From Escherichia coli (lineage in GTDB: Bacteria > Pseudomonadota > Gammaproteobacteria > Enterobacterales > Enterobacteriaceae): a stretch of 64,000 nucleotides of DNA. The DNA is taken from assembly GCF_050920415.1 (NCBI RefSeq), contig NZ_CP169309.1; one strand, written 5' to 3'. Positions within the stretch are counted from its first letter, which is position 1. Every line of letters begins with the position of its first letter. Of this stretch, positions 25,916 to 61,409 are shown piece by piece. The position numbers and the translations under genes are program-made. The notes under the pieces were generated by a model that was not told the DNA's origin, ran no database searches, and saw only the letters and a program-made list of their open reading frames with translations.

Positions 25916-25933
25916 AGCCGAGTAGTGGCAAAA

Positions 25934-28357: not shown

Positions 28358-28439
28358 GAGCACCGCTTCCATTTATAGAGCAATAGTCACCAGCGTAATT
28401 TTCTGGCACAGTTCAGGGAACTGAAATTTTGGCTAAGGA

Positions 28440-29669: not shown

Positions 29670-30077
29670 TCACCCCGCTCGATGATGACAGCAGCCGGAG
29701 AGATTTTCGATAATTGGGCAGTCGGCGCTGTCATCACCGGGGCAGGCATTCGCCAGCGCCAGTAGCTGGTCGCGCATGGATTGCAGCTCCTCAATGTGCC
29801 GTTCGATCTCCGCTACCTTCTCCAGCGTACGACGTTTGACGTCGGCACTGTGACGCTGCGGATCGTTAAACAGATTCACCAGTTCGCCGCTCTCTTCCAG
29901 GTTAAAGCCCACCTGGCGCGCCTGGCGCAGTAAGGTCAGTTCGTTGAGATGCTGCTGCGTGTAGGTTCGATAACCATTTTCGCTGCGCATCGGCGGCGTC
30001 ACTAGCCCCTTTTCTTCATAGAAGCGAATGGCTTTGCTGGTCAGGCCGGTAATTTTTGCTACATCGCTAATGTTCAT
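29670..30077 (-). CDS. cueR: MerR-family copper-responsive transcriptional regulator
   Basis: 135-aa [29 protein letters not shown]... with C-terminal metal-binding Cys pair (CPGDDSADC), matching recalled CueR. Confidence 0.92.
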
Positions 30078-33408: not shown

Positions 33409-33411
33409 TCT

Positions 33412-42400: not shown

Positions 42401-45400
42401 CTCACCGGTACGGTTAAGGTCCAGTTGCCTGCTGCGTCGGTGGTAGCGCTGTAGTTATGACCGTTGAGCGTGACGGTAACCTGTGCGCCGGTCGCCAGCC
42501 CCGTACTGCTACCGCTGATGGTCAACGGCTGGCCTTTTTCATCGGCGTTCAGGACGTTATCGCTGCTGATGGCGTTAAAGGTAATGGTCGGCAGCCCGGT
42601 ATTGACCGTCACCTGATGGGTGGCGCTGCCGCTGTTTCCGGCGGCGTCAGTGACGCTGGCGTTAATGGTCACCGTGCCGTTTGCCAGTGCCGAAACAACG
42701 CTTGCCGGGACGCCGACGCTCCAGTTGCCGCTGGCATCCAGCACCGTGGTGAAGGTATTTGTGCCGATAGTCACCGTCACGGTGTTACCGGTTGCCGCAC
42801 CCGTGGCGGAGCCGCTGATAATCTGCGCCTGGGCGTGTTCCGTCGCGTTGATCACATCATCACCCGCGACAGTGTTGATGGTGACGACCGGAACGGAAGT
42901 ATCCACCGTCAGGTTGTGGTTAACCGAGGTCGGGTTTCCGGCCTTGTCGCTCACCGCCGCGCTGACGGTGTAGATGCTGGCGGTCAGAGCGCTTAAGTCG
43001 GCTGGCGGTACGCTGATACTCCAGCTGCCGTCCGTTTGTACCGTGCCAGTATAGTTTGCGCCATTGAGCGTGACGGTCACCGTCTGCCCGGCTTCCGCCG
43101 TGCTGCTGCCAGTGATGGTCAGCGCCGCACCCGCTTCGGCGGCGTTAAGAATATCGTCGCCCGCAATGGTGTTAATGGTCACCGTTGGCGCGGTGGCATC
43201 GACGCTGTAAGCGTGGGTAGTGGTGGCACTGTTGCCGTTAACGTTGCTGACGCTGGCCTGTGCGCTGGCATCGCCATCACGCAGGGCCGCCATATCTGCC
43301 GCCGGAACCGTGGTGCTCCAGGAACCATTCGCCGCGACGCTTGCCGTGTAGGTTTTGCCGCCAAAGGTCACGGTGACCGTTTGTCCGGCTTCGACGCCGG
43401 AAGTGCTGCCGGAGAGCGTTAACGCCGCGCCTTTCTCAGCGGCGTTAATCACATCATCGGCGGTAATGGCGTTGATGCTGACCGCCACCGCCGAGAGATC
43501 GACAGTCACCGGATGGGTGACGCTGACCGGGTTTCCGGCAGTAGTGCTGCCGCTCGCCGTAATCGTCACCGCCCCCGCAGGCCAGGCGCTGACATCCACC
43601 GCCGGAACGCCGACGCTCCAGGTGCCATCCGCCAGTACCGCCGCAACATAGGTTTGCCCACTGATGGTCAGCGTGACGTTGCTGCCCGCTGCCAGACCGG
43701 AGCTGCTGCCGGTAATCACCAGCGCCTGATCGTGCTCGATAATGTTGACCACATCATCGCCCGTCACGGTGTCAATCCGCAGACCGGGCAAATTCGCGTC
43801 TATGGTGATTTCACGCGTGCCGTTGCCGGTATTGCCTACGCTGTTTGTCACCGAGGCCGAAATGGTCAGTTCACCGTTGCCCAGCGCCTGTAACGCCGGG
43901 GCCGGAACATCGACGCTCCAGCTAAAATCCGCCTGCACCGTGGCGGTGTAAGTCGCCCCGCCGAGCGTGACGGTCACCGTGTCGCCAGCCGCAGCACCCG
44001 TGACCAGCCCGTTGATAGTTTGATCTGCCCCTGCTTCGGCAGCGTTAATAATATCGTCCGTTGCCACAACGTTAATGGTGACGCCCGGCAGCGCGGTATT
44101 AACCTGCACGTTATGGCTGGCGGAACCGCTGTTACCATCGGTGTCAGTGGCGGAAGCGGTCACCGTATAACTGGCTTCACCGAGGGCGCTCACCCGTGAC
44201 GCCGGAACAGTCACGCTCCAGTTCCCGGAAGCATCGGCAGTGGTGGTGTAATTTTGCCCGTTGAGCGTAACAGTTACCTGCGTGCCCGCAGGCTGGTTGC
44301 TGGTGCCGGAAATCGACAGATCCGCGCCTTTCTCCGTGGCGTTGATGATGTCATCGACGGCGATGGTGTTAATGGCGAGTATCGGTGCACCGAGCGCCAC
44401 GCTGACAGTGTGCGAGGCCGTGCCGCTGTTGCCTGCGGAGTCGGTAACCGTGGCGGTAATGGTCACATCGCCCTGGGCCAGCGCGGAAATCACGCTGGCA
44501 GGCACACCGATGCTCCAGTTGCCGTTGGCGTCCAGCACGGTGGTGTAGGTGGTCGAGCCAATCGTCACGGAAACCGTGTTACCCGTCGTCGCGCCCGTTG
44601 CCGAGCCGCTGATAATCTGCGCCTGAGCATGTTCCGTGGCGTTAATCACGTCATCGCCCGCTACCGTGTTAATGGTGACGACCGGAGCGGCAAGGTCTAC
44701 CGTCAGGTTATGCGTTGCCGAGGCCGGATTTCCGGCTTTGTCGCTTACCGAGGCGTTGACGGTATACGAGCTGGCAGTGAGGTTAGCTAAATCGCCAGTT
44801 GGTACGCTGACGCTCCAGCTCCCGTCTGCCTGCACGTTGCCGCTGTAATTGATGCCGTTTAGCGTCACGGTCACTGTCTGCCCGGCTTCTGCGGTGCTGG
44901 TGCCGCTGATAGTCAGCGCCGATCCCGCTTCGGCGGCATTAAGAATATCGTTGCTGGCAATGGTGTTGATGGTGACGGAGGGCGCGGTGGCATCGACGCT
45001 ATAAACATGCGTTGCCTGGGCGTTGTTACCCGCGACGTTGCTGACGCTGGCCTGGACGTTTGCTGCGCCATCCGGCAAGGTTGCGAGATCGGCGGCTGGG
45101 ATCGTCAGCCCCCAGGTATTATCCGCGGCAACCGTGGTGGTGTAGCTTTTGCCACCGAAAATAACGGTAATGGTCTGCCCCGCTTCCACGCCGGAGGTGG
45201 TGCCGGAAAGCTGCAAATCAGTGCCTTTTTCGGCGGCGTTTATTACATCGTCAGTGGAGAGTGTATTGATGGTAATCGCCACGGCAGCGAGATTGACCGT
45301 GACCGGATGAGTAATGCTGGTTGTGGTTCCTGCGGTATTGGTGCCAGAGACGGCAATATTAACCGTCCCCGCAGGCCAGTCAGCCACGTCCGCTGCCGGA

Positions 45401-48400
45401 ACGCCGACGCTCCAGGTGCCATCGGCGAGTACCGTTGCGCCGTAGGTGACGTTGTTGATGACTACCGTCAACGCCGCGCCCGCCGCCAGTCCGCTACTGC
45501 TACCGGTGACCACCAGCGCCTGAGTGTGCTCAATGCTGTTAATCACATCATCGCCTGCCACGGTATCGACCCGCAGGCCTGGCAGATTGGCGTCTATCAC
45601 GATGTCGTGCGTTGCGGTGCCAGTATTATTTGCGGAATTAGTCACCGAGGCGCTGATGGTCAGTTCACCGTTACCCAGCGCCTGCAAATCTGCCGCAGGC
45701 ACGCTGACGCTCCAGCTTAAATCTGGCTGCACGGTGGCAATGTATTGATTACCACCAATAGTGACAATCACCGTATTCCCCGCAACCGCCGTCCCCGTAA
45801 CCTGTCCGCTGAGGGTCTGGTTAACGGCGATTTCAGCGGCGTTGATAATGTCATCACCCGCCACAGTATTAATGATTACCCCTGGCAGGAGCGATTCGAC
45901 ATTCACCGTATGGGTAGTACTACCGCTGTTACCCGCGCTGTCGGTGGCGCTGGCGCTAATCGAATAAACCGCCTCGCCCAGTGCGCCGACCGCCGAAGCC
46001 GGCACGGTAACGCTCCAGTTGCCGGAGCCGTCGGTGGTGGCGCTGTACGCCAGGCCGTTCAACATCACGGTGACCGTAGTGCCTGCCGCCAGGCCGCTGG
46101 AGACGCCGCTGATGATCAGATCCTGGGTTTTCTCCGCATTATTAATAATGTCATCACCGGAGACAGTGTTAATGGTCAGCGTCGGGCCACTGAGATCAAC
46201 GGTCACATCGTGAGTCGTGCTGTCGCTGTTGCCCGCGCGATCGCTCAGGCTGGCGGTGATGGTCTGGCTACCGGTTGCCAGTGCCGTGACATCCGCCGCC
46301 GGAATACCCACACTCCAGTTACCGGAGGCGTCCAGCGTTGTGGTGTAGTTTTTACCGTTCAGCGTGACGGTCACCACATCGCCTGCCGCCGCGCCCGTAC
46401 TGGTTCCGCTCACCACCAGCGCCTGCCCGTGTTCGATGGCGTTGATAATGTCATCGCCCGCGACGGTGTTAATGGTGAGATCCGGCGCGGTCACGTCCAC
46501 CGCCAGTGCATGATCCGCGCTTGCCGGATTGCCCGCTTTGTCGCTCACCGTGGCGGTCACGGTATAACTGCTGGCGGTTAATCCGCTTAAATCTGTCGCC
46601 GGAACGTTCACACTCCAGGTGCCATCGGCCTGGACGGTAGTCTGGTACGTGTTGTTATTGAGCGTGACAGTCAGCGTCTGCCCGGCCTGCGCCGTGGTGG
46701 TGCCGCTGATGGTTATCCCCGCGCCCGCTTCGCTCACGTTGAGAATATCGTCGCTGGCGATGGTGTTGATGGTCACAAGCGGCGCGGTGGCATCGACGCT
46801 GTACGCGCGATCGGCCTGGGCGCTGTTGCCGTAAATGTTGCTGACACTCGCCTGCACGTTGCCCGCGCCGTCCGGCAACGCAGCGAGATCGGCAGGCGGC
46901 ACATTCACCGTCCAGCTACCGTTGGTTTCCACAGTGGTGGTGTAATTTTTGCCGCCAAAGGTGACGGTCACCGTCTGCCCGGCTTCTACACCGCTGGTAC
47001 TGCCGCTCACCACCAGCGTTTCGCCTTTTTCGACGGCATTGATCACATCATCGCCGGAGAGAGTGTTAATGGTTATGGCGACCGCCGCCAGATCGACGGT
47101 AACCGGATGGGTAATGGTGGAGGTTGTTCCGGCACTGTTGGTGCCGCTTACCGTGATATCCACCGTACCCGCAGGCCAGTTGCTGACGTCTGCCGCCGGA
47201 ACGCCGAGGTTCCATGTGCCGTCGGCTAACACCGTGGCAGCGTAAGTGACGTTGTTAATCACGACCGTTAATGCCGTTCCTGCCGTCAGCCCGGTGCTGC
47301 TACCTGTTATCACCAGCGCCTGATTGTGCTCAATGCTGTTAATAACATCATCGCCCGCTACGGTATCGACCCGCAAACCAGGCAGATTGGCATCGATCGT
47401 AATATCGCGCGAGCCGCTGCCGGTATTACCAACGTCATTGGTGACCGAGACGTTAACTGTCAGGTCGCCGTTACCCAGCGCCTGAATATCCGCCGCTGGA
47501 ACGCTAACACTCCAGCTTAAATTAGCCTGCACCGTGGCGGTGTAGGTGTTGCCGCCCAGCGTGACGGTAACCGTATCCCCCTGCGCTGCGCCCGTGACCT
47601 GGCCGCTGATGGTCTGGGCGTTACCAGATTCAGCGGCGTTAATAATATCGTCAGTCGCCACTGCGTTAATGGTGACGGCAGGCAAGGCGCTGTTGACCAG
47701 CACATTATGGCTGGCGGAATTACTGTTGCCTGCCGTATCAGTGACGTTCGCGGTTACTGTGTAGTTAGCTTCACCCAACGCGCTAACCGCTGACACTGGC
47801 ACCGTGGCGCTCCAGTTGCCACTGCTATCGGTGGTAGCGGTGTAATTTTGTCCGTTCAGCGTCACTGTAATGGTGGTGCCTGCGGGCTGATTACTGGTGC
47901 CAGTAATTTGCAGATCCGCGCCTTTTTCTGTGGCGTTAATCACGTCATCGCTGGCGATAGTGTTGATGCCAATGGTTGGCGCGGTGAGATTTACGGTGAC
48001 CGTGCGGCTGGCATCATCGCTGTTGCCTGCCGCATCGGTAATGGCCGCAGTGATGGTTTGCGGGCCGCTGCCCAGCGCAGTGACGTCTGCTGCCGGAACG
48101 CCGACGCTCCAGTTGCCGGAGGCGTCCAGCGTGGTAGTGTAGGTTTTACTGTTTAACGTGATGGTGATGACATCGCCCGCTTCGCCGCCAGTGCTGGAAC
48201 CGGAGATCACCAGCGCCTGTCCGTGTTCGGCGGCGTTAATGATGTCATCGCCGGAGACGGTGTTAATGGTTAAAACTGGCACGGTGAGATCCACCGCCAG
48301 GCCGTGAGTGGCGGTCGCCGGGTTACCCGCTTTGTCGCTTACCGAGGCGCTGACCGTGTACGGGCTGGCGGTCAGATTGCTGAGATCTGTTGTCGGCACG

Positions 48401-51400
48401 CTGACGCTCCAGCTACCGCCCGCCTGAACGGTGCCGATGTAAGCCACACCATTAAGCGTGACGGTTACCGTTTGCCCCGCTTCGGCGGTGCTGGTGCCGC
48501 TGATGGTTAACGGATTTCCCGCCTCAGCGGCGTTAAGAATATCGTCGGTGGCGATGGTGTTAATGGCAAGCGTCGGGGCCGTGGCATCGACGCTATAGGC
48601 GTGGGTTGCCGAAGCCGTGTTGCCGTTAATATTGCTGACACTGGCCTGTACCGTGGCGTCGCCGTCACGTAACGCGCTGAGATCGGCGGTGGGTAGCGTA
48701 GTTGTCCAGCTACCATCGCCCGCTACGGTAGCGATATAGGTTTTGCCGCCAAAGGTGACGGTGACGGTTTGCCCCGCTTCCACGCCGGAAGTGCTGCCGG
48801 AAAGGGTTAAATCTGCCCCTTTTTCGGCGGCGTTAATCACATCATCGCCGGAAACGGTGTTAATGGAGATCGCCACCGCCGCCAGATCGACGGTGACCGG
48901 ATGGGTGATGGTGGAGGTTGTTCCGGCAGTGTTAGTGCCGCTTACCGTGATATCCACCGTCCCCGCAGGCCAGTTGCCCACATCTGCCGCCGGAACGCCA
49001 ACGCTCCATGTGCCATCGGCTAATACTGTCGCGCCATAGGTGACGTTATTGATCACCACCGTCAGCGCCGCGCCCGCCGCCAGCCCGCTGCTGCTACCGG
49101 TTATCACCAGTGCCTGACCGTGCTCGATGCTGTTAACCACATCATCGCCCGCCACGGTATCAACGCGCAGACCTGGCAGATTGGCATCTATCACAATATC
49201 GCGCGCACCGCTGCCAGTATTACCCACGCCGTTGGTTACCGAGGCGTTAACTGTCAGGTCGCCATTACCGATGGCCTGAATATCCGCCGCCGGAACGTCC
49301 ACGCTCCAGCTAAAATTGCCCTGCACAGTAGCGGTGTAGGTTTTCCCGCCAAGCGTCACGGTAACCGTATCGCCCGCCGCCGCGCCCGTCACCTGGCCGC
49401 TGATGGTCTGCGCCACGCCCGATTCCGCCGCGTTAATAATATCGTCGGTCGCCACCGGATTAATGGTGACACCCGGCAGCGCGGTATTCACCTCCACGTT
49501 ATGGCTGGCGGAATTGCTGTTGCCCGCGCTGTCGGTGACGTTCGCCGTCACCGTGTAACTGGCTTCGCCCAGCGCACCGACGGCAGAGGCTGGCACCGTG
49601 GTGCTCCAGTTGCCTGCGGCGTCCGTCGTGGCGGAGTAATTTTGCCCGTTAAGCGTCACCGTAATTGTGGTGCCTGTTGGCTGATTACTGGTGCCGGAAA
49701 TTTGCAGATCCGCGCCTTTTTCCGTGGCATTAATCACGTCATCGCTGGCAATGGGGTTGATGCCAATGGTCGGCGCGGTAAGGTTAACGGTGACCGTGTG
49801 CGTCTCGTTGTCGCTGTTGCCAGCCACATCGGTAACGGTCGCCGTCACGGTTTGCGGGCCGCTGCCCAGCGCAGAGACATCCGCAGCCGGAACGCCGACG
49901 CTCCAGTTGCCGGAGGCATCCAGGGTGGTGGTGTAGGTTTTATTGTTTAGCGTGACGCTGACGATATCGCCCGCCTCCCCGCCAGTGCTGGAACCGGAAA
50001 TCACCAGCGCCTGCCCGTGTTCGGCGGCGTTAATAATATCATCGCCCGCAATGGTGTTAATGGTCAGTACCGGAACGGTGAGATCCACCGCCAGATTATG
50101 CGTGGTGCTCGCCGGGTTGCCCGCTTTGTCATTAACCGTGGCGGTCAGGGTGTGGCTGCCATCCGTCAATGCCTCAAGGTCTGCCGCCGGAATAGTAATA
50201 CTCCAGCTGCCGTCGGCCTGTACCGTTGCCTGATAGGTCTGCACGGTCGGGCTATTGAGCGTTACCGTAACAATCTGCCCCGCTTCAGCGGTGGTGGTGC
50301 CGCTCACCGTCACACCCGCATCGGCTTCGCTGGCGTTGACGATATTGTCGCTGGCGACGGTATTGATAATGATGGTTGGCGCGCTGCTATCGACGCTGTA
50401 GTTATGCACCGCCGAGGCGCTATTGCCATTGATATTGCTGACGCTGGCCTGCGCGGAGGCGCTGCCCTCAGGTAATGCTGCCAGATCGGCGGCAGGAACG
50501 GTGGCAGTCCAGCTACCATCGCTCGCCACGCTGGCGGTGTAATTTTTCCCGCCAAAGGTGACGGTGACGGTTTGACCGGGTTCTACATTCGTGGTGGTGC
50601 CGGAAAGGGTTAAATCAGCGCCTTTTTCTGCGGCGTTAATCACGTCGTCCGTAGCGATGGTGTTGATGGTGATCGCCGCTGGCGTGAGATCGACCGTTAC
50701 CGGATGCGTAATGCTTATCGGATTTCCGGCGCTACTTTCCCCGGACACAGTAACCGTCACTGTTCCCGCAGGCCAGGCGCTAACCTGCGCCGCCGTGACG
50801 CCCACGCTCCAGCCACCATCGGCCAGCACCGCAGTGGTGTATTCCACATTGTTAATCATAACGGTAAGCGGCGTGCCTTCTGCCAGCCCCGAGCTGCTGC
50901 CGCTGACCACCAGCGCCTGCCCGTGTTCGATGATATTGACCACATCATCACCCGCCACCGTATCGACCCGCAGACCGGGCAGATTGGCGTCGATGGTGAT
51001 ATCCCGCGTGCCGCTGCCGGTGTTGCCGTTTTGATTGGTGACCGAGGCGCTCACCGTTAAATCACCATTACCCAGCGCCTGAATATCCGCCGCCGGAACG
51101 CTCACGCTCCAGCTTAAACCGGCCTGCACGGTGGCGGTGTAAGTATTACCGCCAAGCGTAACGGTTACCGCGTCGCCAACGGCGGCTCCGGTAACCTGCC
51201 CGCTGATGGTTTGCGCAACGCCCGCTTCGGCGGCGTTAATAATATCGTCGGTTGCCACCGGGTTAATGGTCACGCCGGGCAACGCGCTGTCGACCAGCAT
51301 GTTATGGCTGGCGGTGGCGCTGTTACCGATACCGCTGGTCACTGCTGCTGTCACCGTATAGTTGGCCTGGCCCAAGGCGGTTACCGCCGATGCCGGAACG

Positions 51401-54186
51401 GTGACGCTCCAGTTGCCGGAAGAGTCGGTCGTGGTGGTGTAATTTTGCCCGTTCAGCGTCACTGTGATGGCGGTATTGGCAGGCTGATCGCTGGTGCCGG
51501 TAATCTGGAGATCGGCTCCTTTTTCGCTGGCGTTGATCACATCATCGCCCGCGATAGTGTTAATGCCAATCACCGGCGCGGCGGTATCAACCGTGACGGT
51601 CAATGACTGGCTGCCGCTGTTTCCAGCGCGGTCAGTCACTGAAACGTTGATCGGATAACTGCCGTCCACCAGTCCGCTGACAACGGAGGCCGGAACGCCC
51701 AGACTCCAGTTGCCGGAAGCATCCACCACCGTGGTGTAATCCACATTATTCAGCGTCACGGTGACAATATCACCCGCCTGCGCGCCGGTGACCGTGCCGC
51801 TGATAATTTGCGCCTGAGTGTGTTCCGGCGTGTTAATGACGTTATCGGTTGCCACCGGATTAATGGTCACCACGGGCGGCGTGGCATCGACCAGCGCCAC
51901 CCGTGAGACGCTGGTCGGATTACCCGCGACATCGTTCACGCTGGCGGTCACCGTGGCGTTGCCGTCAGCCAGTACGCCAACGTTGGCGGCGGGAACGGTC
52001 ACGCTCCAGGTGCCATCTGACTGCACGACGCCCTGATAGGTCTGCCCATTAAGCGTGACGGTCACCGTCTGCCCCGACTGGGCGTCGGTGATGCCAGTGA
52101 TTTGCAGATCCTGACCACTTTCGGCGGCGTTGATGATGTTATCAGCCGTCAGCGAGTCAATGCTTAAGGCCGGGGCCTGGCTGTCGACGGTAATGGTGCG
52201 GGAGGTGTTGCCGGTATTGCCGCTGAGATCCGTCACTGAAGCGGTAATCGCCACCGCGCCGTCAGGCAGATTTCCCATCGCGGCGGCAGGTACCGTCAGA
52301 CTCCAGGAGCCATCGGCCTGTACGGTAGTGGTAAAACTCTGTCCAGCCAGGGTTACTGTGACAGTTTGTCCTGTCTCGGCCTGTTGAGTGCTACCGGTAA
52401 GGGTCAGTGGCGCACCTTTTTCTGCGCCACTGATAATGTCATCGCCGGAGACGGTGTTAATGGTGATCAACGGAGAAACACCGACCAGCGTGATTGCTCG
52501 AGACGCCGCGCCGGTATTTCCTGCAGCATCTGTCACGGTGACGAAAATCGTATTGGCTCCGCGATCCAGCGTGCGGGTTACCGCCGGGTCCAGTGCCACA
52601 TTCCAGCTGCCATCTGCCAGCACGATGCCCGTCAGGACATGAGTGCCCAATTTCACCGTTACCGTATCGCCTGGAGAAGCACCGCTGACTTGTCCGGAGA
52701 TGATCTGCGCGACGGCCTGCTCGGCATTATTAAGAATATCGTCGCCCGCCACGGTGTTAACGCTGACCACGGGTGCTGAGGTGTCTACCGTGAAATTCGC
52801 GCTGTTGCTGGTGGTGTTCCCTGCCCGATCGCTGACACTGGCATTGACAGCGTAGTTCCCCTCCGCCAGTGCCTGGACCTCCGTGGCAGGCAGCGTCACT
52901 TGCCAGGTTCCGTCGCTACCGACGGTTGCTGAATGGCTTTTCCCGTTAACGTTCAGTGTTACGGTTTGCCCGGCTTCTGCGTTCGAAGTGCCGCTCACTA
53001 CCAGCGCGGCGTTATGTTCTGAGGCGCTGACAATGTTGTCCTGAGCGATGGTGTTGATAGCAAGTGTTGGCGGCTGGGTATCGACCGTTAGCAGCTGCGC
53101 TCCGGTGACCGTATTGCCCGTGGCATCTTTCCCACTGACCAGCACCGCCTGATTCCCTTCGCCTAACGCTTGCGCGTCGGCGGTCGGCACCTGCACGCTC
53201 CACGCGCCGTTAGCGCCTACGCTGGTGGTGTAGGTTTTACCATTTAGCGTGACGGTGAGTTCGGTTCCCTGCGCCAGGTTGCTCGTCGTGCCAGAAAGCG
53301 TAAACCCGGCGGCCTGTTCGCTGGCGTTAATGATGTTATCGCCTGCGGTGGTGGCAACCTGTACGACAGCCTGACTATTGTCGATGGTTAACGTTATCGA
53401 CCCAGCGTTGGTAATGGTGCTGCCGACGATTTGCACCACTGACCAGGTATGTTCGCCCGCGCTTTGTGTGGGTAAATCGACGCTCCAGCGCCCGTTGCTG
53501 TCTACCTGAGTGCTGGCGATAGTATTGCCGTTACTGTCTTTGATCTGAATGGTCGCCCCCGCCTGACCGCTGCCGCTAAAGGTTGGCGTGGTGTCATCGG
53601 TGATATCGTTGGCGGAAAGAATACCGCGTTGATCGCCCTGATTATCGGTTACCAAAAACGATGGCGTGGCATTGCCGGGTTCGGCTGGCGGTGGGTTGTT
53701 AACCACTTCAGTTTTTGAGTCATCATCACCACCGCTTGCCAGTAAAGCGCCAAGCGCGCCACCACCTACCGCGGCACCCGCTAACCATCCCCACGGGAAG
53801 GCACTGGTCTGAGCGACGGTATCAAGATACGGCGCAATGCTTTCAATTGCGGTAGTCTGAGCGGTCAGCTCCACGGGCGCTAATCCACCCGCCGCGGTAT
53901 CGGCAAAGGTGACATGAGTCAGCTGTTGACCATCGGCAAACACCAGTTGAGATTGTTCGCTGGTATTTGCCGCTTGCAGGAAATAACCGTTGCAGCGGAT
54001 CACCGTGCCGTCTTGCATATAGATCAACAGGTCATTTCCGTCACGGACATAACGCACAACGGCAGATGCCTGAGCATGAACCTGCACTACAGAGGGCTCA
54101 TAAATGACAACCGTAACGTCGCCTGGATTAATCAGCGTTTGTTTGACGGATGTTTTTCGCGAAATAACATCAATAATCAGGCTCAT
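33412..54186 (-). CDS. giant T1SS-secreted repeat adhesin (6,924 aa; BapA/SiiE/LapA-like) with Ig-like repeat array, FG-GAP/VCBS-like region, RTX-like repeats and C-terminal secretion signal
   Basis: Single uninterrupted 20.8-kb ORF; dozens of about 100-aa Ig-like repeats (…TINTVAGDDIINAAEHGQALVISGS…GNWSVGVPAADV…); Asp-rich motifs DFDGDGDMDLF, DWDHDGLMDI and DYDWDGAVDV; glycine/aspartate nonapeptides GSSGDNQLEGRGGNDTLNIGNGGHDTL near the C-terminus; flanked by T1SS OMP, ABC and MFP genes. Confidence 0.9.
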   Translation of the reverse strand: MSLIIDVISRKTSVKQTLINPGDVTVVIYEPSVVQVHAQASAVVRYVRDGNDLLIYMQDGTVIRCNGYFLQAANTSEQSQLVFADGQQLTHVTFADTAAGGLAPVELTAQTTAIESIAPYLDTVAQTSAFPWGWLAGAAVGGGALGALLASGGDDDSKTEVVNNPPPAEPGNATPSFLVTDNQGDQRGILSANDITDDTTPTFSGSGQAGATIQIKDSNGNTIASTQVDSNGRWSVDLPTQSAGEHTWSVVQIVGSTITNAGSITLTIDNSQAVVQVATTAGDNIINASEQAAGFTLSGTTSNLAQGTELTVTLNGKTYTTSVGANGAWSVQVPTADAQALGEGNQAVLVSGKDATGNTVTGAQLLTVDTQPPTLAINTIAQDNIVSASEHNAALVVSGTSNAEAGQTVTLNVNGKSHSATVGSDGTWQVTLPATEVQALAEGNYAVNASVSDRAGNTTSNSANFTVDTSAPVVSVNTVAGDDILNNAEQAVAQIISGQVSGASPGDTVTVKLGTHVLTGIVLADGSWNVALDPAVTRTLDRGANTIFVTVTDAAGNTGAASRAITLVGVSPLITINTVSGDDIISGAEKGAPLTLTGSTQQAETGQTVTVTLAGQSFTTTVQADGSWSLTVPAAAMGNLPDGAVAITASVTDLSGNTGNTSRTITVDSQAPALSIDSLTADNIINAAESGQDLQITGITDAQSGQTVTVTLNGQTYQGVVQSDGTWSVTVPAANVGVLADGNATVTASVNDVAGNPTSVSRVALVDATPPVVTINPVATDNVINTPEHTQAQIISGTVTGAQAGDIVTVTLNNVDYTTVVDASGNWSLGVPASVVSGLVDGSYPINVSVTDRAGNSGSQSLTVTVDTAAPVIGINTIAGDDVINASEKGADLQITGTSDQPANTAITVTLNGQNYTTTTDSSGNWSVTVPASAVTALGQANYTVTAAVTSGIGNSATASHNMLVDSALPGVTINPVATDDIINAAEAGVAQTISGQVTGAAVGDAVTVTLGGNTYTATVQAGLSWSVSVPAADIQALGNGDLTVSASVTNQNGNTGSGTRDITIDANLPGLRVDTVAGDDVVNIIEHGQALVVSGSSSGLAEGTPLTVMINNVEYTTAVLADGGWSVGVTAAQVSAWPAGTVTVTVSGESSAGNPISITHPVTVDLTPAAITINTIATDDVINAAEKGADLTLSGTTTNVEPGQTVTVTFGGKNYTASVASDGSWTATVPAADLAALPEGSASAQASVSNINGNSASAVHNYSVDSSAPTIIINTVASDNIVNASEADAGVTVSGTTTAEAGQIVTVTLNSPTVQTYQATVQADGSWSITIPAADLEALTDGSHTLTATVNDKAGNPASTTHNLAVDLTVPVLTINTIAGDDIINAAEHGQALVISGSSTGGEAGDIVSVTLNNKTYTTTLDASGNWSVGVPAADVSALGSGPQTVTATVTDVAGNSDNETHTVTVNLTAPTIGINPIASDDVINATEKGADLQISGTSNQPTGTTITVTLNGQNYSATTDAAGNWSTTVPASAVGALGEASYTVTANVTDSAGNSNSASHNVEVNTALPGVTINPVATDDIINAAESGVAQTISGQVTGAAAGDTVTVTLGGKTYTATVQGNFSWSVDVPAADIQAIGNGDLTVNASVTNGVGNTGSGARDIVIDANLPGLRVDTVAGDDVVNSIEHGQALVITGSSSGLAAGAALTVVINNVTYGATVLADGTWSVGVPAADVGNWPAGTVDITVSGTNTAGTTSTITHPVTVDLAAVAISINTVSGDDVINAAEKGADLTLSGSTSGVEAGQTVTVTFGGKTYIATVAGDGSWTTTLPTADLSALRDGDATVQASVSNINGNTASATHAYSVDATAPTLAINTIATDDILNAAEAGNPLTISGTSTAEAGQTVTVTLNGVAYIGTVQAGGSWSVSVPTTDLSNLTASPYTVSASVSDKAGNPATATHGLAVDLTVPVLTINTVSGDDIINAAEHGQALVISGSSTGGEAGDVITITLNSKTYTTTLDASGNWSVGVPAADVTALGSGPQTITAAITDAAGNSDDASRTVTVNLTAPTIGINTIASDDVINATEKGADLQITGTSNQPAGTTITVTLNGQNYTATTDSSGNWSATVPVSAVSALGEANYTVTANVTDTAGNSNSASHNVLVNSALPAVTINAVATDDIINAAESGNAQTISGQVTGAAQGDTVTVTLGGNTYTATVQANLSWSVSVPAADIQALGNGDLTVNVSVTNDVGNTGSGSRDITIDANLPGLRVDTVAGDDVINSIEHNQALVITGSSTGLTAGTALTVVINNVTYAATVLADGTWNLGVPAADVSNWPAGTVDITVSGTNSAGTTSTITHPVTVDLAAVAITINTLSGDDVINAVEKGETLVVSGSTSGVEAGQTVTVTFGGKNYTTTVETNGSWTVNVPPADLAALPDGAGNVQASVSNIYGNSAQADRAYSVDATAPLVTINTIASDDILNVSEAGAGITISGTTTAQAGQTLTVTLNNNTYQTTVQADGTWSVNVPATDLSGLTASSYTVTATVSDKAGNPASADHALAVDVTAPDLTINTVAGDDIINAIEHGQALVVSGTSTGAAAGDVVTVTLNGKNYTTTLDASGNWSVGIPAADVTALATGSQTITASLSDRAGNSDSTTHDVTVDLSGPTLTINTVSGDDIINNAEKTQDLIISGVSSGLAAGTTVTVMLNGLAYSATTDGSGNWSVTVPASAVGALGEAVYSISASATDSAGNSGSTTHTVNVESLLPGVIINTVAGDDIINAAEIAVNQTLSGQVTGTAVAGNTVIVTIGGNQYIATVQPDLSWSVSVPAADLQALGNGELTISASVTNSANNTGTATHDIVIDANLPGLRVDTVAGDDVINSIEHTQALVVTGSSSGLAAGAALTVVINNVTYGATVLADGTWSVGVPAADVADWPAGTVNIAVSGTNTAGTTTSITHPVTVNLAAVAITINTLSTDDVINAAEKGTDLQLSGTTSGVEAGQTITVIFGGKSYTTTVAADNTWGLTIPAADLATLPDGAANVQASVSNVAGNNAQATHVYSVDATAPSVTINTIASNDILNAAEAGSALTISGTSTAEAGQTVTVTLNGINYSGNVQADGSWSVSVPTGDLANLTASSYTVNASVSDKAGNPASATHNLTVDLAAPVVTINTVAGDDVINATEHAQAQIISGSATGATTGNTVSVTIGSTTYTTVLDANGNWSIGVPASVISALAQGDVTITATVTDSAGNSGTASHTVSVALGAPILAINTIAVDDIINATEKGADLSISGTSNQPAGTQVTVTLNGQNYTTTADASGNWSVTVPASRVSALGEASYTVTASATDTDGNSGSASHNVQVNTALPGVTINVVATDDIINAAEAGADQTINGLVTGAAAGDTVTVTLGGATYTATVQADFSWSVDVPAPALQALGNGELTISASVTNSVGNTGNGTREITIDANLPGLRIDTVTGDDVVNIIEHDQALVITGSSSGLAAGSNVTLTISGQTYVAAVLADGTWSVGVPAVDVSAWPAGAVTITASGSTTAGNPVSVTHPVTVDLSAVAVSINAITADDVINAAEKGAALTLSGSTSGVEAGQTVTVTFGGKTYTASVAANGSWSTTVPAADMAALRDGDASAQASVSNVNGNSATTTHAYSVDATAPTVTINTIAGDDILNAAEAGAALTITGSSTAEAGQTVTVTLNGANYTGTVQTDGSWSISVPPADLSALTASIYTVSAAVSDKAGNPTSVNHNLTVDTSVPVVTINTVAGDDVINATEHAQAQIISGSATGAATGNTVTVTIGTNTFTTVLDASGNWSVGVPASVVSALANGTVTINASVTDAAGNSGSATHQVTVNTGLPTITFNAISSDNVLNADEKGQPLTISGSSTGLATGAQVTVTLNGHNYSATTDAAGNWTLTVPVSDLAALGQANYTVSASATSAAGNTASSQANLLVDSGLPGVTINTVADDDIINAAEAGADQTISGVVTRAAAGDTVTVTLGGNTYTATVQGNLSWSVTVPAADLQALGNGDLTINASVTNANGNTGSGTRDITIDANLPGLRVDTVAGDDIVNSIEHGQALVITGGSSGLNAGTVLTVTINSVAYSATVQADGSWSVGIPAANVSAWPAGPLTVEVAGQSSAGNPVSVSHPFTVDLTAVAISINTVASDDVINAAEKGTNLTLSGSTSGIESGQTVTVTFGGKNYTASVAANGSWSVNVPAADLATLPDGAANVQASVSSASGNSASATHAYSVDASAPTLTINTIASDDILNATEAGSPLTISGTSTAETGQTVTVTLNGATYTGNVQADGSWSVSVPTSALGALTASNYTVSATVNDKAGNPGSASHNLAVDTTAPVLTINTVAGDDIINDAEHAQALVISGTSTGGEAGDVVSVVLNGKTYTTTLDASGNWSVGVPTADVTALGSGAQSITASVSDRAGNSDDASRTVTVNLTAPAISINTIAGDDVINATEKGSDLALSGTSDQPAGTAITVTLNGQNYSATTDASGNWSVTVPASAVSALGEATYSVTASVTNAQGNSSTASHNVQVNTALPGVTINPVATDDIINASEAGSAQTISGQVTGAAAGSTVTVTLGGKTYTATVQPDLSWNVSVPAADWQALGNGELTVNASVTNAVGNTGSSTRDITIDASLPGLRVDTVAGDDVVNIIEHAQAQVITGSSSGFTAGTALTVVINNQTYAATVLANGTWSVGIPAADVSNWPAGTLNITVSGANSAGTQTSITHPLSVDLTTVAISINAITPDDVINAAEKGAALTLSGSTSGVEAGQTVTITFGGKTYTTTVAANGSWSTTVPAADMAALRDGDASAQVRVTNVNGNSATATHEYSIDSAAPTVTINTIASDNIINASEAAAGVTVSGTSTAETGQTLTVTLNGTNYQTTVQADGSWSLTLPASDLTALANNGYTLTATVSDLAGNPGSASKGVTVDTTAPVISFNTVAGDDVINNVEHSQAQIISGTATGAVAGDRLVVTIAGLQYVTSTDASGNWSVGVPASVVSGLADGTVTISATITDSAGNSSTQTHNVQVNTAVVSLSVSTISGDNIINAAEAGSALTLSGTGTNFATGTVVTVLLNGKGYSATIQNNGSWSVNVSAADVAALADGTSYTVSASAQDSAGNSATASRSVAVDLTAPVININTVSTDDRLNAAEQQQPLTLNGSTSAEVGQTVTVTFGGKTYTATVAANGTWALNVPAADLAALGQGAQTITASVNDRAGNPGQTTHALTVDTVAPTVTIATVAGDDIINNAEQLAGQTISGTTTAEVGQTVTVTFNGQTWTATVGSGGSWSVFIPAQQFAGLSDGSYTISATVSDQAGNPGSASRGVTLNGDVPTVTINTFAGDDVVNAAEHGASLVISGTTTAPVGQTLTLTLNGKTYTTTVQTGGSWSYTLGSADVTALADGNAYVINASVSNAIGNIGSSNHTITVDLSAPAMGINIDSLQADTGLSASDFITSVSPVVVNGSLTAALASNETAQISIDGGITWSTLTVTGTTWRYNDSRTLTDGNYLYQVRVIDAAGNVGATDSQNVVIDTTAPDPAVKTIAISAITTDTGLITNDFVTSDTTLAVSGTLGAALSAGEFAQISIDGGTTWQNLAVNGLTWTYLDGRTLTDGNYNYQVRVIDTAGNIGATASQIVTVDTTAPLASKTIVIAGISDDTGLSSSDFVTRDTTLTVRGTLGAALAADERAQISLDGGVTWATLTVIGTSWSYADGRTLTDGTWNYTVRVVDLAGNVGQTATQNVVVDTIIPEAAKSITITGISDDTGASSSDFITSDTTLTVRGVLGAALGANEFAQISTDNGSTWVNVTVAADGLNWTYVDGRTLTNGTTTWQVRVVDLAGNVGATGSQSAQIDTVNPAQVLTIASISTDTGSSATDFITSDTTLTLTGSLGAGLASGEVAQISLDGGATWTTLTTNGTQWTYTDSRTLTDGSYVYQVRVLDLAGNTGPVVSKTVVVDTINPTATPTIVSYTDDVGQRQGTLSSSQATDDTTPLLNGVLSAPLASGEVVYLYRNGLLLGAVTMVGALNWTYSDSGLVSGAYTYSARVVDLAGNITSSSDFILTVDTSIPTTLAQITNQTTRDTTPIISGVITAALASGQYVEVVINGKTYTSQPGGAVVVDPAHNTWYVQLPDTDALAASATAYNVTAQVKSSAGNGNTANVSTGTVTVNAAIDYTPTWTTTSKSTAWGLTYGLDTHGMWTVLANQQIMQSTDPLTWSKTALTLVQSGNNYATSSIADYNRNGTGDLFITRDDYGTGYINGFTNNGDGTFSSAIQVNVGTLTWYGSIVAFDKEGDGYLDFWIGDAGGPDSNTFLWNNAGTLTGNSTTANNGGSATVGGAVTGYLSLNEGSGVDLNNDGRIDLVQHTFNLNNNFTLSSLISQGNGTFVWGQNTVNTFLSSPGSGGNSASVSMTWADFDGDGDMDLFLPASQGRANYGSLLFNTNGVLGSPVAVGATATTYASQFSLAVDWDHDGLMDIARIAQTGQSYLYTNVSNASNWTQSALGGSQSGTTSGVAAMDYDWDGAVDVLVTKQSGSVFLIRNTNTVSYGTSLHLRITDPNGINVYYGNTVKLYNSAGVLVATQIINPQSGMGVNDTSALVNFYGLNAGETYNAVLIKSTGTTASNIDQTVNTTWGGLQATDATHAYDLSAEAGTASNNGKFVGTGYNDTFFATAGTDTYDGSGGWVYSSGTGTWLANGGMDVVDFRLSTVGVTANLSVTTAQATGFNTSTFTNIEGISGSNFNDTLTGSSGDNQLEGRGGNDTLNIGNGGHDTLLYKLLNASDATGGNGSDVVNGFTVGTWEGTADTDRIDIRELLQGSGYTGNGKASYVNGVATLDAQVGNIGDFVKVTQSGSDTIVQIDRDGTGGGFATTNVVTLTGVHTDLATLLANHQLMVV
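38000..52000. repeat. tandem array of about 1.8-kb super-repeats inside the adhesin gene (about 7-8 copies; approximate bounds)
   Basis: Antisense ORF-track artefacts with near-identical sequence recur at 1,794-1,797-bp spacing (39764, 41558, 43355, 46949, 48743); the motif LPGLRVDTVAGDDV recurs 7 times about 600 aa apart in the protein. Confidence 0.7.
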
Positions 54187-54294
54187 AATGGCATTCCTGA
54201 TAAATGGCGCACATCCTTAGCGAGTCCATTTATCTAAATAAGACAAAGGTAATCACTCAACAACGATGCATACCTGATATTAATAATGGCAGGA

Positions 54295-55650
54295 TTATTT
54301 CAAGTCGGGTAAGTCGTTGTATAAGCCCTGCTTAATTCCCGCTAATGGAATAAGGTTATTCACCGCAGCGGCATAATTCACAGCGGCAACCCAGCCATCA
54401 TAATTGACATTTATTTCAGCTGATTGCGCCTGAAAGACATCTTGCTCAACGGTTAAGAGATCGTTCAGGCTGCGTTTACCCAATTTATATTCATTTTGGT
54501 ACACATCTCGCGTTCTGTGCGCACTTTCAGATTGCGCTAACCCAGCCTCTTCACGACCCCGTGCCCCAGTCCAGTTGGCATACGCCACCGACGCCCGTTG
54601 CATAACATCTAATTTCGCCTGCTCAACCTGCGACGCGGATATTTTTTGTTGCCCTTCGGCTTGCTGAACCTGAGCCGAAACCGCGCCGCCCTGATACAAC
54701 GGCGCGTTGACGTTCAACTGTAACTGGTCGTCCCAGTACGAGCGGTCGCTGGTCTGGTAGCGTGTTTTGCCGCCCTGAATACTGAGCGTCGGCCAGTATT
54801 GCGCTTTCGTTTTTTCCACACCGTACTGTGCTGACTGGCGTAAGTTTTCTGCCGCCAGCACCAGTGGGATGGACTGGTAATCAATATTTTTCAGCGATAC
54901 CGGCTGCTCGGCTAATTCAGCAGGTGGCGCGGCTATCGCCTCCGGCTGTACGCCAGTAAGCACCGCCAGTTGCGCTTTGGCGCTCGCCATCTGCGCTTGA
55001 TATTTCTCCAGGGTTGAGCGCATTCCGGCAATACGCGTCTGGGCCTGTAATTCATCCGACGATGAGTTCAGGCCAGCGTTAGCGCGCAGCGCCGCCATGT
55101 TGTAGACGTTTTCCAGCGAGTGGATATTGCGTTGAGCCGCATCGCACAACGCCTGATAACGACTGACCTCCATATAGGCAGTCGCCGTTTTTTCGGCAAC
55201 ATCGGTTAAAGTTGCCATCAATTTAAAGCGGTAGCTGTCACGAGCGGCGGTTTGCAGTTTGATATCGTTATCTGTTTTACCGAAGTCATACACCAGCTGT
55301 GTCAGGGTTATGCCATACGAAACGTTGTTATCAAGCCTGCCGCTGGAGTCCGTTTGCCGTGACGGCCCCGCGTTGCTGGTTAATCCAACGTGTGGATACC
55401 AGGCACTTTTGGCTTCATCAATTTGCGCTTCGCCAATACCTATCTGCGCCGCCTGTTGAGTGACGTCGGGATTTCGCGCAAAGGCGCGTAATATACTTTC
55501 CTGTAAAGATAATCGGGCAACTGGCGTTACCGCTGGGGCGTTCGCCCATTGTGGCAGCGGTGCAGCAATTGTAGCTTCTCCCATCACCATAAAACTTATT
55601 AAAAAAATAAGTCCATTATTTTTACGGTTTTTAAACTGGAATCGCGCCAT
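54295..55650 (-). CDS. TolC-family outer membrane channel of the T1SS
   Basis: 451-aa ORF with signal peptide and two-repeat OEP architecture rich in Q/A coiled-coil segments; first gene of the apparent T1SS operon. Confidence 0.82.
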   Translation of the reverse strand: MARFQFKNRKNNGLIFLISFMVMGEATIAAPLPQWANAPAVTPVARLSLQESILRAFARNPDVTQQAAQIGIGEAQIDEAKSAWYPHVGLTSNAGPSRQTDSSGRLDNNVSYGITLTQLVYDFGKTDNDIKLQTAARDSYRFKLMATLTDVAEKTATAYMEVSRYQALCDAAQRNIHSLENVYNMAALRANAGLNSSSDELQAQTRIAGMRSTLEKYQAQMASAKAQLAVLTGVQPEAIAAPPAELAEQPVSLKNIDYQSIPLVLAAENLRQSAQYGVEKTKAQYWPTLSIQGGKTRYQTSDRSYWDDQLQLNVNAPLYQGGAVSAQVQQAEGQQKISASQVEQAKLDVMQRASVAYANWTGARGREEAGLAQSESAHRTRDVYQNEYKLGKRSLNDLLTVEQDVFQAQSAEINVNYDGWVAAVNYAAAVNNLIPLAGIKQGLYNDLPDLK

Positions 55651-55952
55651 AGATAAGTCACTTCCTTCCAGGTCATTATTTTAACTAGTTTTTACAACCA
55701 GTCTCATTTTATTAAGAAGGGTAATAACTTGTGCACCTCTTTTGTCGAACATTGAGATTGGAAAAGAAATGCAGTTAAAAAGCTTATACGTTATTTATTT
55801 AGAATACACTACGACTTTTAGATTACCATCATACGCATTAAGAATAATCCACAGCAATAAGTGATTAGCATCACAGATTTATCGCGTATATATCATTTTT
55901 TTGTGACTTATTTATTAAAGGAATAAGAAAGGAAATTTGAATTAAAGACAAA

Positions 55953-55978
55953 GGCGCAGTACAGAAAGTACTGCGCCC
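55953..55978 (-). terminator. putative intrinsic terminator downstream of ybaT
   Basis: Perfect 10-bp stem GGCGCAGTAC/GTACTGCGCC with AGAAA loop just past the ybaT stop; T-rich tract follows on the minus strand. Confidence 0.5.
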
Positions 55979-58215: not shown

Positions 58216-58406
58216 CTTTTGTTAACTCCTTTTTATAGATGCGGGAGGGGATTCCTCACCCTGGTGCCGATTTTCAGGCATCCTGATTTAACTTAGCACC
58301 CGCGACTTAACTACAGGAAAACAAAGAGATAAATGTCTAATCCTGATGCAAATTGAGCCGATTTTTTAATCTTTACGGACTTTTACCCGCCTGGTTTATT
58401 AATTTC

Positions 58407-58437
58407 TTGACCTTCCCCTTGCTGGAAGGTTTAACCT
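58407..58437 (+). promoter_or_regulatory. copA promoter with CueR (MerR-type) operator: -35 TTGACC, 19-bp spacer containing dyad CCTTCC-N7-GGAAGG, -10 TAACCT
   Basis: TTGACCTTCCCCTTGCTGGAAGGTTTAACCT seen about 40 bp upstream of the copA start; the 19-bp spacer is diagnostic of MerR-family promoters. Confidence 0.75.
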
Positions 58438-58476
58438 TTAACACAGTCAGTCAACACTGTCTTAAAGGAGTACGTT

Positions 58477-60981
58477 ATGTCACAAACTATCGACCTGACC
58501 CTGGACGGCCTGTCCTGCGGTCACTGCGTTAAACGCGTGAAAGAAAGTCTCGAACAGCGCCCGGACGTTGAGCAGGCGGATGTGTCTATCACTGAAGCAC
58601 ACGTTACGGGTACTGCCAGTGCAGAACAGCTGATCGAAACCATCAAACAAGCGGGTTATGACGCATCTGTAAGCCACCCAAAGGCTAAACCGCTGGCGGA
58701 GTCATCAATCCCGTCGGAAGCACTGACAGCGGTTTCTGAGGCGCTTCCGGCAGCAAACGCCGATGACGATGACAGCCAGCAGTTGCTGCTGAGCGGCATG
58801 AGCTGCGCCAGCTGTGTCACCCGCGTACAAAATGCGCTGCAAAGCGTACCGGGCGTCACTCAGGCACGGGTAAACCTGGCGGAGCGTACTGCGCTGGTGA
58901 TGGGCAGTGCCTCTCCACAAGATTTAGTGCAGGCGGTGGAAAAAGCGGGCTACGGCGCGGAAGCGATTGAAGATGACGCTAAACGCCGCGAGCGCCAGCA
59001 GGAAACCGCCGTCGCTACCATGAAGCGCTTCCGCTGGCAGGCAATTGTCGCTCTGGCGCTAGGTATCCCGGTGATGGTCTGGGGGATGATCGGCGATAAC
59101 ATGATGGTCACCGCCGACAACCGCAGTCTGTGGTTAGTTATCGGCCTGATAACGCTGGCGGTAATGGTTTTCGCCGGCGGGCATTTTTACCGTAGCGCAT
59201 GGAAAAGCCTGCTGAACGGTGCGGCGACAATGGATACGCTGGTGGCGCTGGGTACTGGCGTGGCGTGGCTCTATTCAATGAGCGTCAACCTGTGGCCGCA
59301 GTGGTTCCCGATGGAAGCGCGACATCTTTATTACGAAGCCAGTGCGATGATTATCGGTCTGATTAATCTCGGTCATATGCTGGAAGCGCGCGCACGTCAG
59401 CGTTCTTCAAAGGCGCTGGAAAAGTTACTCGATTTAACCCCGCCGACGGCGCGCCTGGTCACTGACGAAGGTGAAAAAAGCGTGCCGCTGGCAGATGTTC
59501 AGCCTGGTATGTTACTGCGCCTGACGACCGGCGATCGCGTACCGGTAGATGGTGAAATTACCCAGGGCGAAGCGTGGCTGGATGAAGCAATGCTGACGGG
59601 CGAACCTATCCCACAGCAAAAAGGCGAAGGCGATAGCGTTCATGCAGGTACCGTGGTGCAGGACGGTAGCGTGCTGTTTCGTGCCAGTGCGGTTGGCAGC
59701 CATACTACGCTGTCACGGATCATTCGTATGGTGCGCCAGGCCCAGAGCAGTAAACCGGAAATCGGCCAGTTGGCGGATAAAATCTCTGCCGTATTTGTGC
59801 CGGTAGTGGTGGTGATTGCGCTAGTCAGTGCGGCCATCTGGTACTTCTTTGGTCCGGCACCGCAAATTGTTTATACCCTGGTGATTGCCACTACGGTACT
59901 GATTATCGCCTGCCCGTGTGCGCTGGGGCTGGCAACGCCAATGTCGATTATTTCCGGCGTCGGGCGTGCGGCTGAATTTGGCGTGCTGGTACGGGACGCC
60001 GACGCGCTGCAACGCGCCAGTACGCTCGACACCGTAGTGTTCGATAAAACCGGGACGCTGACCGAAGGGAAGCCGCAGGTTGTCGCAGTGAAAACATTTG
60101 CTGATGTTGACGAAGCGCAGGCGCTGCGTCTGGCGGCGGCACTGGAACAAGGTTCCAGCCATCCGCTGGCACGAGCGATCCTCGATAAAGCAGGCGATAT
60201 GCAACTGCCGCAGGTCAACAGCTTCCGTACATTGCGTGGGCTGGGCGTGAGCGGTGAAGCAGAAGGTCATGCGTTATTGCTGGGTAATCAGGCGTTGTTA
60301 AATGACCAGCAAGTCGATACTAAAGCGATTGAAGCAGATATTTCAGCTCAGGCATCGCAAGGGGCAACGCCTGTGCTGCTGGCGATTGACGGGAAAGCGG
60401 TGGCCCTGCTGGCGGTGCGCGATCCGTTGCGTAACGATAGCGTGGCGGCACTGCAACGTCTGCATAAAGCGGGATATCGTCTGGTGATGCTAACCGGGGA
60501 TAACCCGACCACCGCCAATGCGATCGCCAAAGAAGCAGGGATTGATGAGGTGATAGCCGGGGTGCTGCCAGACGGTAAAGCCGAAGCGATCAAACGTCTG
60601 CAAAGTGAAGGACGTCAGGTGGCAATGGTGGGTGACGGCATTAACGACGCGCCAGCACTGGCCCAGGCGGATGTCGGTATTGCGATGGGGGGCGGCAGCG
60701 ATGTTGCCATTGAAACCGCGGCGATTACCCTGATGCGCCATAGCCTGATGGGTGTTGCGGATGCGCTCGCAATTTCCCGCGCAACGCTGCGCAACATGAA
60801 GCAGAACCTGCTCGGTGCGTTTATCTACAACAGCATTGGTATTCCGGTCGCCGCCGGTATTTTGTGGCCGTTCACTGGAACCCTGCTTAACCCGGTGGTT
60901 GCCGGAGCGGCAATGGCGCTCTCGTCGATCACCGTAGTGAGTAACGCCAACCGGTTGCTGCGGTTTAAACCGAAAGAGTGA
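58477..60981 (+). CDS. copA: Cu(I)-translocating P1B-type ATPase
   Basis: 834-aa ORF with two N-terminal metal-binding domains ([16 protein letters not shown]), CPC motif, phosphorylation motif DKTGTLT and [10 protein letters not shown]. Confidence 0.93.
58677..58683 (+). other. slippery heptamer CCCAAAG in copA at codon about 69 (candidate -1 programmed frameshift site giving the short CopA(Z) product)
   Basis: Heptamer seen in sequence at the end of the first metal-binding domain (…SHPKAKP…); recalled from published E. coli copA work. Confidence 0.5.
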
Positions 60982-61021
60982 TTGGTATTTACTTAATGCG
61001 TTTGTGAGATCCAGTTCTTGT

Positions 61022-61265: not shown

Positions 61266-61409
61266 CGCCACCAACACCCGTGCAGTCTTTCGTTTCAAAG
61301 CAAAAACAATTTTTCGATCATATTTAAGCTACCACTGAACAAGCCTCATAACTCCATTTGCGCCATCCCTCACCGCGCGCTAGCATGATATTTCACAAAG
61401 GGAGGTCGT

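Follow-up and report, generated by a model that had tools for sequence, protein, structure and literature searches.

The copA promoter of an Escherichia coli chromosome in which O-island 28 lies between the promoter and cueR

Is the short element upstream of copA in this Escherichia coli chromosome a promoter that is switched by the copper sensor CueR, even with the gene of the sensor lying beyond a type I secretion (T1SS) island, and does the island itself come under the same control? These questions concern a stretch of 64,000 nucleotides of the contig NZ_CP169309.1 (assembly GCF_050920415.1), the whole of which is called the window here. In our study, we established the sequence anatomy of the element, the identity of the element and of its regulator to the K-12 counterparts, the extent of its conservation, the fact that it occurs once in the window and its distance to cueR; the mechanism was taken over by analogy from the structures and the biochemistry published for the identical sequence. 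We found that the element is almost certainly the native CueR-dependent copA promoter (PcopA) of an E. coli chromosome. The features of the locus are given in Table 1.

Table 1. Coordinates of the copA promoter, of cueR and of the DNA between them in the window
Feature	Position	Strand	Remarks
cueR, trans-acting Cu(I) sensor/activator	29670..30077	-	K-12 identity and NF007590
hlyD28, HlyD-family adaptor	30074-31249	-	
O-island 28, absent from K-12, separates cueR from PcopA	30173..55959	-	BLAST of the K-12 locus against the window; 25.8 kb
T1SS ABC transporter, LssB-type	31246-33408	-	
siiEA adhesin, 6,924 aa	33412-54186	-	RefSeq annotation
tolC28, TolC-family	54295-55650	-	
RstA box homologue TAATTCAAATTTCC, the island's own regulatory input	55931..55944	-	1 mismatch to the published box; -294..-281 of the tolC28 ATG
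Intrinsic terminator after ybaT, intact here	55952..55978	-	11-bp stem, 7 G-C pairs, T tract
ybaT	55988-57280	-	
glsA	57283-58215	-	
CpxR-box consensus GTAAAAGTCCGTAAA (GTAAA-N5-GTAAA), perfect, predicted site	58372..58386	-	21 nt 5' of the copA -35
-35 hexamer TTGACC of PcopA	58407..58412	+	5/6 to consensus; K-12-identical
CueR operator, perfect dyad ACCTTCC-N7-GGAAGGT, centre 58420	58410..58430	.	Pattern search and published core box/binding fragment
Spacer TTCCCCTTGCTGGAAGGTT, 19 nt	58413..58431	+	Direct read; 19-bp spacer also in PMC8169799
-10 hexamer TAACCT	58432..58437	+	2 bp 3' of the CueR box
copA Shine-Dalgarno AAGGAG	58465..58470	+	6 nt 5' of the ATG; direct read
copA, Cu(I)-exporting P-type ATPase, regulated gene	58477..60981	+	NCBIfam equivalog NF007952

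The 31 nt at 58407-58437 were read directly from the window as TTGACC, a 19-nt spacer and TAACCT. The final two bases of the -35 hexamer are shared with the left arm of the CueR dyad. The -10 hexamer agreed with TATAAT at three of six positions, retaining A and T at positions 2 and 6, respectively, and the spacer is 2 nt longer than the optimum for sigma-70. The core CCTTCC-N7-GGAAGG was found as an exact match at 58411-58429, inside the spacer and overlapping the -35 hexamer, with arms that extend to 7 nt; the nucleotides 58430-58431 (TT) separate GGAAGG from TAACCT and form the 2-bp gap between the box and the -10 hexamer. The 31-nt promoter, the 19-bp spacer and the dyad had been claimed for these positions by a sequence-only reading, and all of them were read exactly there. 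A generic sigma-70 scan of 58150-58550 with spacers of 16-18 nt did not call PcopA, which is expected because the spacer is 19 nt, and is not counter-evidence. An Rfam scan of the whole window found no RNA family in the promoter, in the copA leader or close to either of them. Elsewhere in the window the same database gave the ChiX/sroB sRNA (82 bits, 62203-62286, minus strand), adjoining ybaP, and a REP-derived naRNA4 element (84 bits, 22734-22811, minus strand) between cnoX and fetB.

The ATG of copA at 58477 follows the -10 hexamer after 39 nt (58438-58476). Six of these 39 positions of the 5' UTR differ from K-12, the differences from K-12 being clustered in this leader, so the transcription start of copA, at about 58443-58445, and the behaviour of the mRNA are what we infer for this strain. 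The reading frame at 58477-60981 scored 1748 bits against the CopA equivalog NF007952, whose cutoff is 1316. The programmed -1 frameshift site of copA was conserved at 58677-58689 (plus strand), where codons 67-69 contain the slippery heptamer C-CCA-AAG, after which the -1 frame reads GGC TAA; the K-12 site yields the 70-aa CopA(Z) chaperone. In the copA-ybaP interval, ybaQ and its flanking REP elements (727 bp, positions 1153-1879 of the K-12 locus L003) were replaced by about 360 bp (60978-61337) carrying no annotated gene.

The K-12 copA promoter was reportedly found by Outten in 2000 and by Stoyanov in 2001 to be activated by CueR, a regulator of the MerR family. Activation by distortion of the DNA was elucidated on this promoter, the model promoter of the MerR family. 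In alignment, the glsA-copA intergenic region was 98% identical to K-12, and the 117 nt at 58324-58440, with both hexamers, the spacer and the dyad, equal K-12 at every base. The 27-bp duplex TTGACCTTCCCCTTGCTGGAAGGTTTA, used as "copA promoter DNA" in EMSA and EPR experiments with CueR (PMC9004249), was found to be exactly the sequence of 58407-58433. A cryo-EM and functional study described PcopA as having a 19-bp spacer, a CCTTCC-N7-GGAAGG core box and a 2-bp gap from the box to the -10 hexamer, and reported that activation is impaired once the CueR box is displaced by 1 bp, whichever the direction (PMC8169799); all three features were found in this window. The earlier description of the element as a MerR/CueR-type promoter of copA is borne out by this agreement, of the core with K-12 PcopA and with the published fragment, and of the geometry with the published one. 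The CueR of this strain was identical to K-12 CueR at 135 of 135 residues and scored 308.6 bits against NF007590 (cutoff 244). Both the cis element and the trans factor are thus the same as the experimentally characterised K-12 pair.

Conservation of the element was high within the species. Of 5419 complete E. coli genomes, 5003 contained the 50-bp core (58390-58439) with 100% identity and the remainder had one or two changes in it, and the 501 bases around the promoter were matched in 5,422 of 5,426. The same 501 bases were 100% identical to the strain MFDS1022581 (NZ_CP169399.1), where they are annotated between glsA and copA. Identity of 99% or more over 58200-58700 was found in just 12 of the 5,422 genomes, so the lineage is sparsely sampled. 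A comparative scan with the pattern TTGACCTTCC-N7-GGAAGG-NN-TA, in one genome per bacterial species, gave at least 120 loci and at least 122 sites. Among the 122 sites listed, 46 were located no more than 700 nt upstream of a same-strand CopA homologue and 30 upstream of CueR/MerR-like genes, and 9 had an adjoining divergent cueR. E. albertii contained an identical PcopA core (locus L023), together with a second site, TTGACC-TTCCCGTAAGGGGAAGGAC-TATCCT (locus L024), directly 5' of a gene that scored 979 bits as CueO. Judged from these comparisons, the architecture of PcopA is a conserved operator-promoter class and not a local accident.

CueR binding and activation dependent on Cu(I), Ag(I) or Au(I) are experimental for the identical K-12 sequence (PMC8169799, PMC9004249). 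By analogy, a CueR dimer, acting in trans from a gene 28 kb off, would occupy ACCTTCC-N7-GGAAGGT in the over-long 19-bp spacer. In the absence of Cu(I), sigma-70 RNA polymerase would meet the -35 hexamer TTGACC and the weak -10 hexamer TAACCT out of register, and CueR would keep the promoter off; CueR bound by Cu(I), or also by Ag(I) or Au(I), would bend and under-twist the spacer, by which the hexamers would be realigned and copA turned on. CueR also contacts the sigma non-conserved region (PMC8169799). The distance of cueR would be immaterial because CueR is a diffusible regulator. Nothing in the sequence counts against a CueR-dependent copA promoter. PcopA is already known, ordinary and entirely textbook, and the promoter itself adds nothing new; here it serves as a positive control, in which a reading of the letters located the site of a regulator exactly.

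The dyad might also, or instead, serve the glsA-ybaT operon as a bidirectional element, which would make the glutaminase and the permease directly CueR-dependent. The intergenic region of 261 bp is shared by copA and the divergent gene glsA (57283-58215, minus strand), ybaS and ybaT were proposed by comparative genomics as possible members of the CueR regulon (PMC1526738), and ybaST was found to be induced by copper (PMC9628877, PMC10903455). However, about 205 nt separate the glsA ATG from the dyad centre, which is located within the promoter that faces copA, a review describes the induction of ybaST by copper as having no direct association with CueR (PMC10903455), and the documented direct regulators are GadE, GadW, and GadX. 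We therefore consider a direct role of CueR at glsA-ybaT improbable, and retain the reading of the dyad as the operator of copA. For copA itself, CueR is probably not the sole input, since a CpxR box is present just 5' of PcopA. The CpxR-box consensus was matched twice in the window against 0.13 matches expected, and CpxR is reported to regulate copA, in a statement cited in PMC11005409; the box at 58372-58386 is a probable second input to copA. The second CpxR box (26426-26440, minus strand) was intergenic, 5' of a YadA-like gene.

The island between ybaT and cueR raises the second question. On the minus strand the order of the genes was glsA, ybaT, TolC-family, siiEA, LssB-type ABC, HlyD-family, and cueR; the TolC-family, ABC and HlyD-family components scored 411 bits (TIGR01844), 836 bits (TIGR03375), and 328 bits (TIGR01843), respectively. 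RefSeq names the product of siiEA (33412-54186, minus strand) the BapA-related adhesin SiiEA. The cluster of a TolC-family outer membrane protein, a giant adhesin, an ABC transporter and an HlyD adaptor, all on the same strand between ybaT and cueR, matches the gene order and the locus of O-island 28 (OI-28). From the start of cueR (30077) to the dyad centre (58420) the distance is 28,343 bp, and it is greater than in K-12 because the segment 30173-55959, absent from K-12, is present. The sequence-only reading had given this distance as about 28 kb, owing to the T1SS island, and both statements stand; its figure of about 3 kb for K-12 was slightly generous, the distance there being about 2.56 kb.

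The frequency of the dyad was examined with all 14 positions against 200 block shuffles of the window. The real window contained one perfect match, none with one to three mismatches, and 22 with four. The shuffles gave no match with zero or one mismatch, and on average 0.12 with two, 2.4 with three, and 19 with four mismatches per shuffle. The 22 matches with four mismatches are thus at the level of chance, and nearly all of them were intragenic. Relaxed scans, which allowed up to four mismatches in 14 over the whole window and gaps of N6-N8 in each intergenic region of the island, found nothing above chance. The scan of the whole window with the CueR dyad had been proposed as a check together with the reading itself, which further dyads upstream of the T1SS operon would have contradicted, and outside PcopA it gave no match with three or fewer mismatches in 14.

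Control of the secretion island by CueR through a degenerate or non-canonical site, which a consensus scan would miss, deserves consideration, as cueR belongs physically to the island operon, with a 4-nt overlap with hlyD28, and regulators so embedded often act on their neighbours. The scan is against it: the best match upstream of tolC28 had six mismatches and that in the tolC28-siiEA gap had seven, even with N6-N8 allowed, and the matches at four mismatches elsewhere are nearly all intragenic and as frequent as chance predicts. No CueR dyad in a promoter with a spacer of 19-20 bp, as is looked for in members of the CueR regulon, was found upstream of the operon. The published regulator of the island is another one, since RstA with Ca2+ activates OI-28 by way of a box that spans -294 to -280 relative to tolC28 (a 2025 paper, PMC12758282, which makes no mention of copper or cueR), and a homologue of this box was found here. 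We consider control of the island by CueR very unlikely. The earlier statement that no similar dyad lies upstream of the island genes agrees with our result, the best intergenic matches of the island having five to seven mismatches in 14 with N6-N8 gaps allowed, and its view that the island is probably outside CueR control is consistent with the dyad scan, with the published RstA/Ca2+ control (PMC12758282) and with an RstA box at the published position. A simple dyad scan correctly excluded CueR control of the neighbouring secretion island.

That the PcopA dyad is a chance palindrome in an ordinary constitutive promoter lacking metalloregulation has a negligible probability: the 12-base pattern was indeed not enriched in the window at two or fewer mismatches (3 matches against 1.9 expected), but the exact match occurs once in the window and was never reached by the shuffles, the element is conserved in essentially all E. 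coli, a like architecture is present 5' of copA and cueR homologues across phyla, and the identity to the experimentally characterised K-12 element already refutes this explanation.

With PcopA read as the CueR-dependent promoter of copA, the surroundings of cueR are the less ordinary part of the locus. The ATG of cueR overlaps the stop codon of hlyD28 by 4 nt (ATGA), and the Shine-Dalgarno sequence of cueR is inside hlyD28. The ATGA overlap was also present in a strain 96% identical over the region. The spacings between the genes from siiEA to cueR were +3, -4, and -4 nt, respectively. No consensus promoter or terminator was found directly upstream of cueR on the hlyD28 side, and a search for a cueR-specific promoter in the final 400 nt of hlyD28 gave only weak 8/12 matches on the cueR strand. 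A literature search for a mapped transcription start or operon of cueR returned just an in-silico ybaS-ybaT-ybbI operon and an intragenic sigma-54 site in K-12 ybaT. This site, CTGGCACTGGTTTTGCT, was mapped by ChIP-seq 679 bp upstream of cueR in K-12. Its counterpart inside ybaT here (56536-56552, minus strand) is CTGGCGCTGGTACTGCT, with three changes that hit both the -24 and the -12 elements, and it was dropped as a source of cueR expression in this strain since it is degraded.

From this arrangement, cueR in island-bearing strains appears to be the last gene of the secretion operon. Because cueR is embedded in the island operon by the 4-nt overlap, the regulatory link of interest would run from the island to cueR and not from CueR to the island. 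We tentatively suggest, as a possibility that we rate below even chance, that in OI-28 strains cueR is expressed as the last cistron of tolC28-siiEA-hlyB28-hlyD28, its dosage being coupled to RstA and Ca2+, whereas in K-12-type strains a frameshifted 94-nt remnant of hlyD28 and read-through from glsA-ybaT would take this place. If this is true, engineered deletions of OI-28 or hlyD28 could disturb copper homeostasis, a possible confounder for mutants in which the island is deleted. The surroundings of cueR suggest a possible coupling of adhesin expression to copper sensing; in K-12, the region upstream of cueR is the relic of a type I secretion gene.

By sequence comparison, the K-12 layout around cueR is a derived state, a deletion scar. 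The 124 nt that count as "intergenic" between ybaT and cueR in K-12 consist of 28 nt of ybaT trailer and about 94 nt that show homology to the hlyD-like gene at its 3' end. This hlyD28 remnant translates as 11 residues, a 1-nt deletion and 19 residues, and the intact C-terminus compared here has 33 residues; in the PGAP annotation of a K-12-type genome the remnant is a pseudogene, frameshifted and truncated at the N-terminus. One identical deletion junction was found in 4,458 of 5,426 E. coli genomes and the intact hlyD-cueR junction in 959; O-island 28 is kept in roughly 18% of E. coli. The remnants of island-negative strains (6897-6993 of the K-12 locus L003, corresponding to 30070-30180 of the window, minus strand) shared four substitutions and the 1-nt deletion relative to island-positive strains, and the final 55 nt before cueR were invariant. 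A recent, strain-specific insertion of the island was ruled out, as K-12 has the frameshifted hlyD28 remnant and 4458 genomes have one junction. The K-12 deletion ends inside the ybaT terminator and has removed its 3' arm; the loss of this terminator could allow glsA-ybaT transcripts to read through into cueR in K-12-type strains, and not in this one. Elsewhere in the Enterobacterales, cueR directly adjoins PcopA and is transcribed divergently from it (our comparative scan; PMC1526738). Escherichia has therefore gained the DNA in between, the bulk of which was subsequently lost from the majority of lineages.

On the other side of cueR, K-12 lacks a second segment (25834-29664, 3.8 kb). It contained a gene for a protein with a YadA C-terminal domain (26662-27678) and three hypothetical ORFs, and the stop codon of cueR abuts that of a convergent 409-aa ORF in this segment. 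The 3' end of K-12 ybbJ is fused at the point of the segment, and the island-negative strain Ecol_743 retained a frameshifted piece of it. In the mnmH-ybbP interval, a variable region (about 6330-17290) contained a T6SS VgrG/TssI gene (13117-15555, minus strand) and several hypothetical ORFs, together with remnants of IS2 and ISAs1 transposases according to the matching RefSeq record.

Compared with known systems, the promoter is closest to K-12 PcopA, which has the same -35 hexamer, 19-bp spacer, dyad, 2-bp gap and -10 hexamer base for base, a 100% identical CueR protein, copA downstream and glsA divergent; the two differ in the six of 39 positions of the 5' UTR and in the distance of cueR, 2.6 kb in K-12 and 28.3 kb here. 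The second CueR-dependent promoter of Escherichia, PcueO, as found in E. albertii (L024), shares TTGACC, a 19-nt spacer with CCTTCC-N7-GGAAGG, the 2-nt gap and a -10 hexamer beginning with TA, but its central 7 nt are CGTAAGG instead of CCTTGCT and its -10 hexamer is TATCCT instead of TAACCT; it drives the periplasmic multicopper oxidase and is located outside this window. The copA-cueR divergon of Salmonella (PMC1526738) and of Superficieibacter, Enterobacter, and Photorhabdus (loci L026, L039, L075, L098, L057, and L091) has the same operator and promoter architecture 5' of copA, whereas its cueR starts about 10 nt from the -35 hexamer on the opposite strand. The cueR of Escherichia is separated from the promoter by glsA-ybaT, either alone or together with OI-28. 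The island itself resembles OI-28 of EHEC O157:H7 (tolC28-rtxA28-rtxB28-hlyB28-hlyD28; PMC12758282) in its locus between ybaT and cueR, its gene order, its TolC, LssB-type ABC and HlyD parts, and its RstA-box homologue, which is one base off the published string. It differs in the adhesin, for which EDL933 has two RTX genes, z0609 and z0615 (PMC12758282), and this strain one uninterrupted ORF of 6,924 aa, so that the EDL933 copy may be a split form of the siiEA adhesin.
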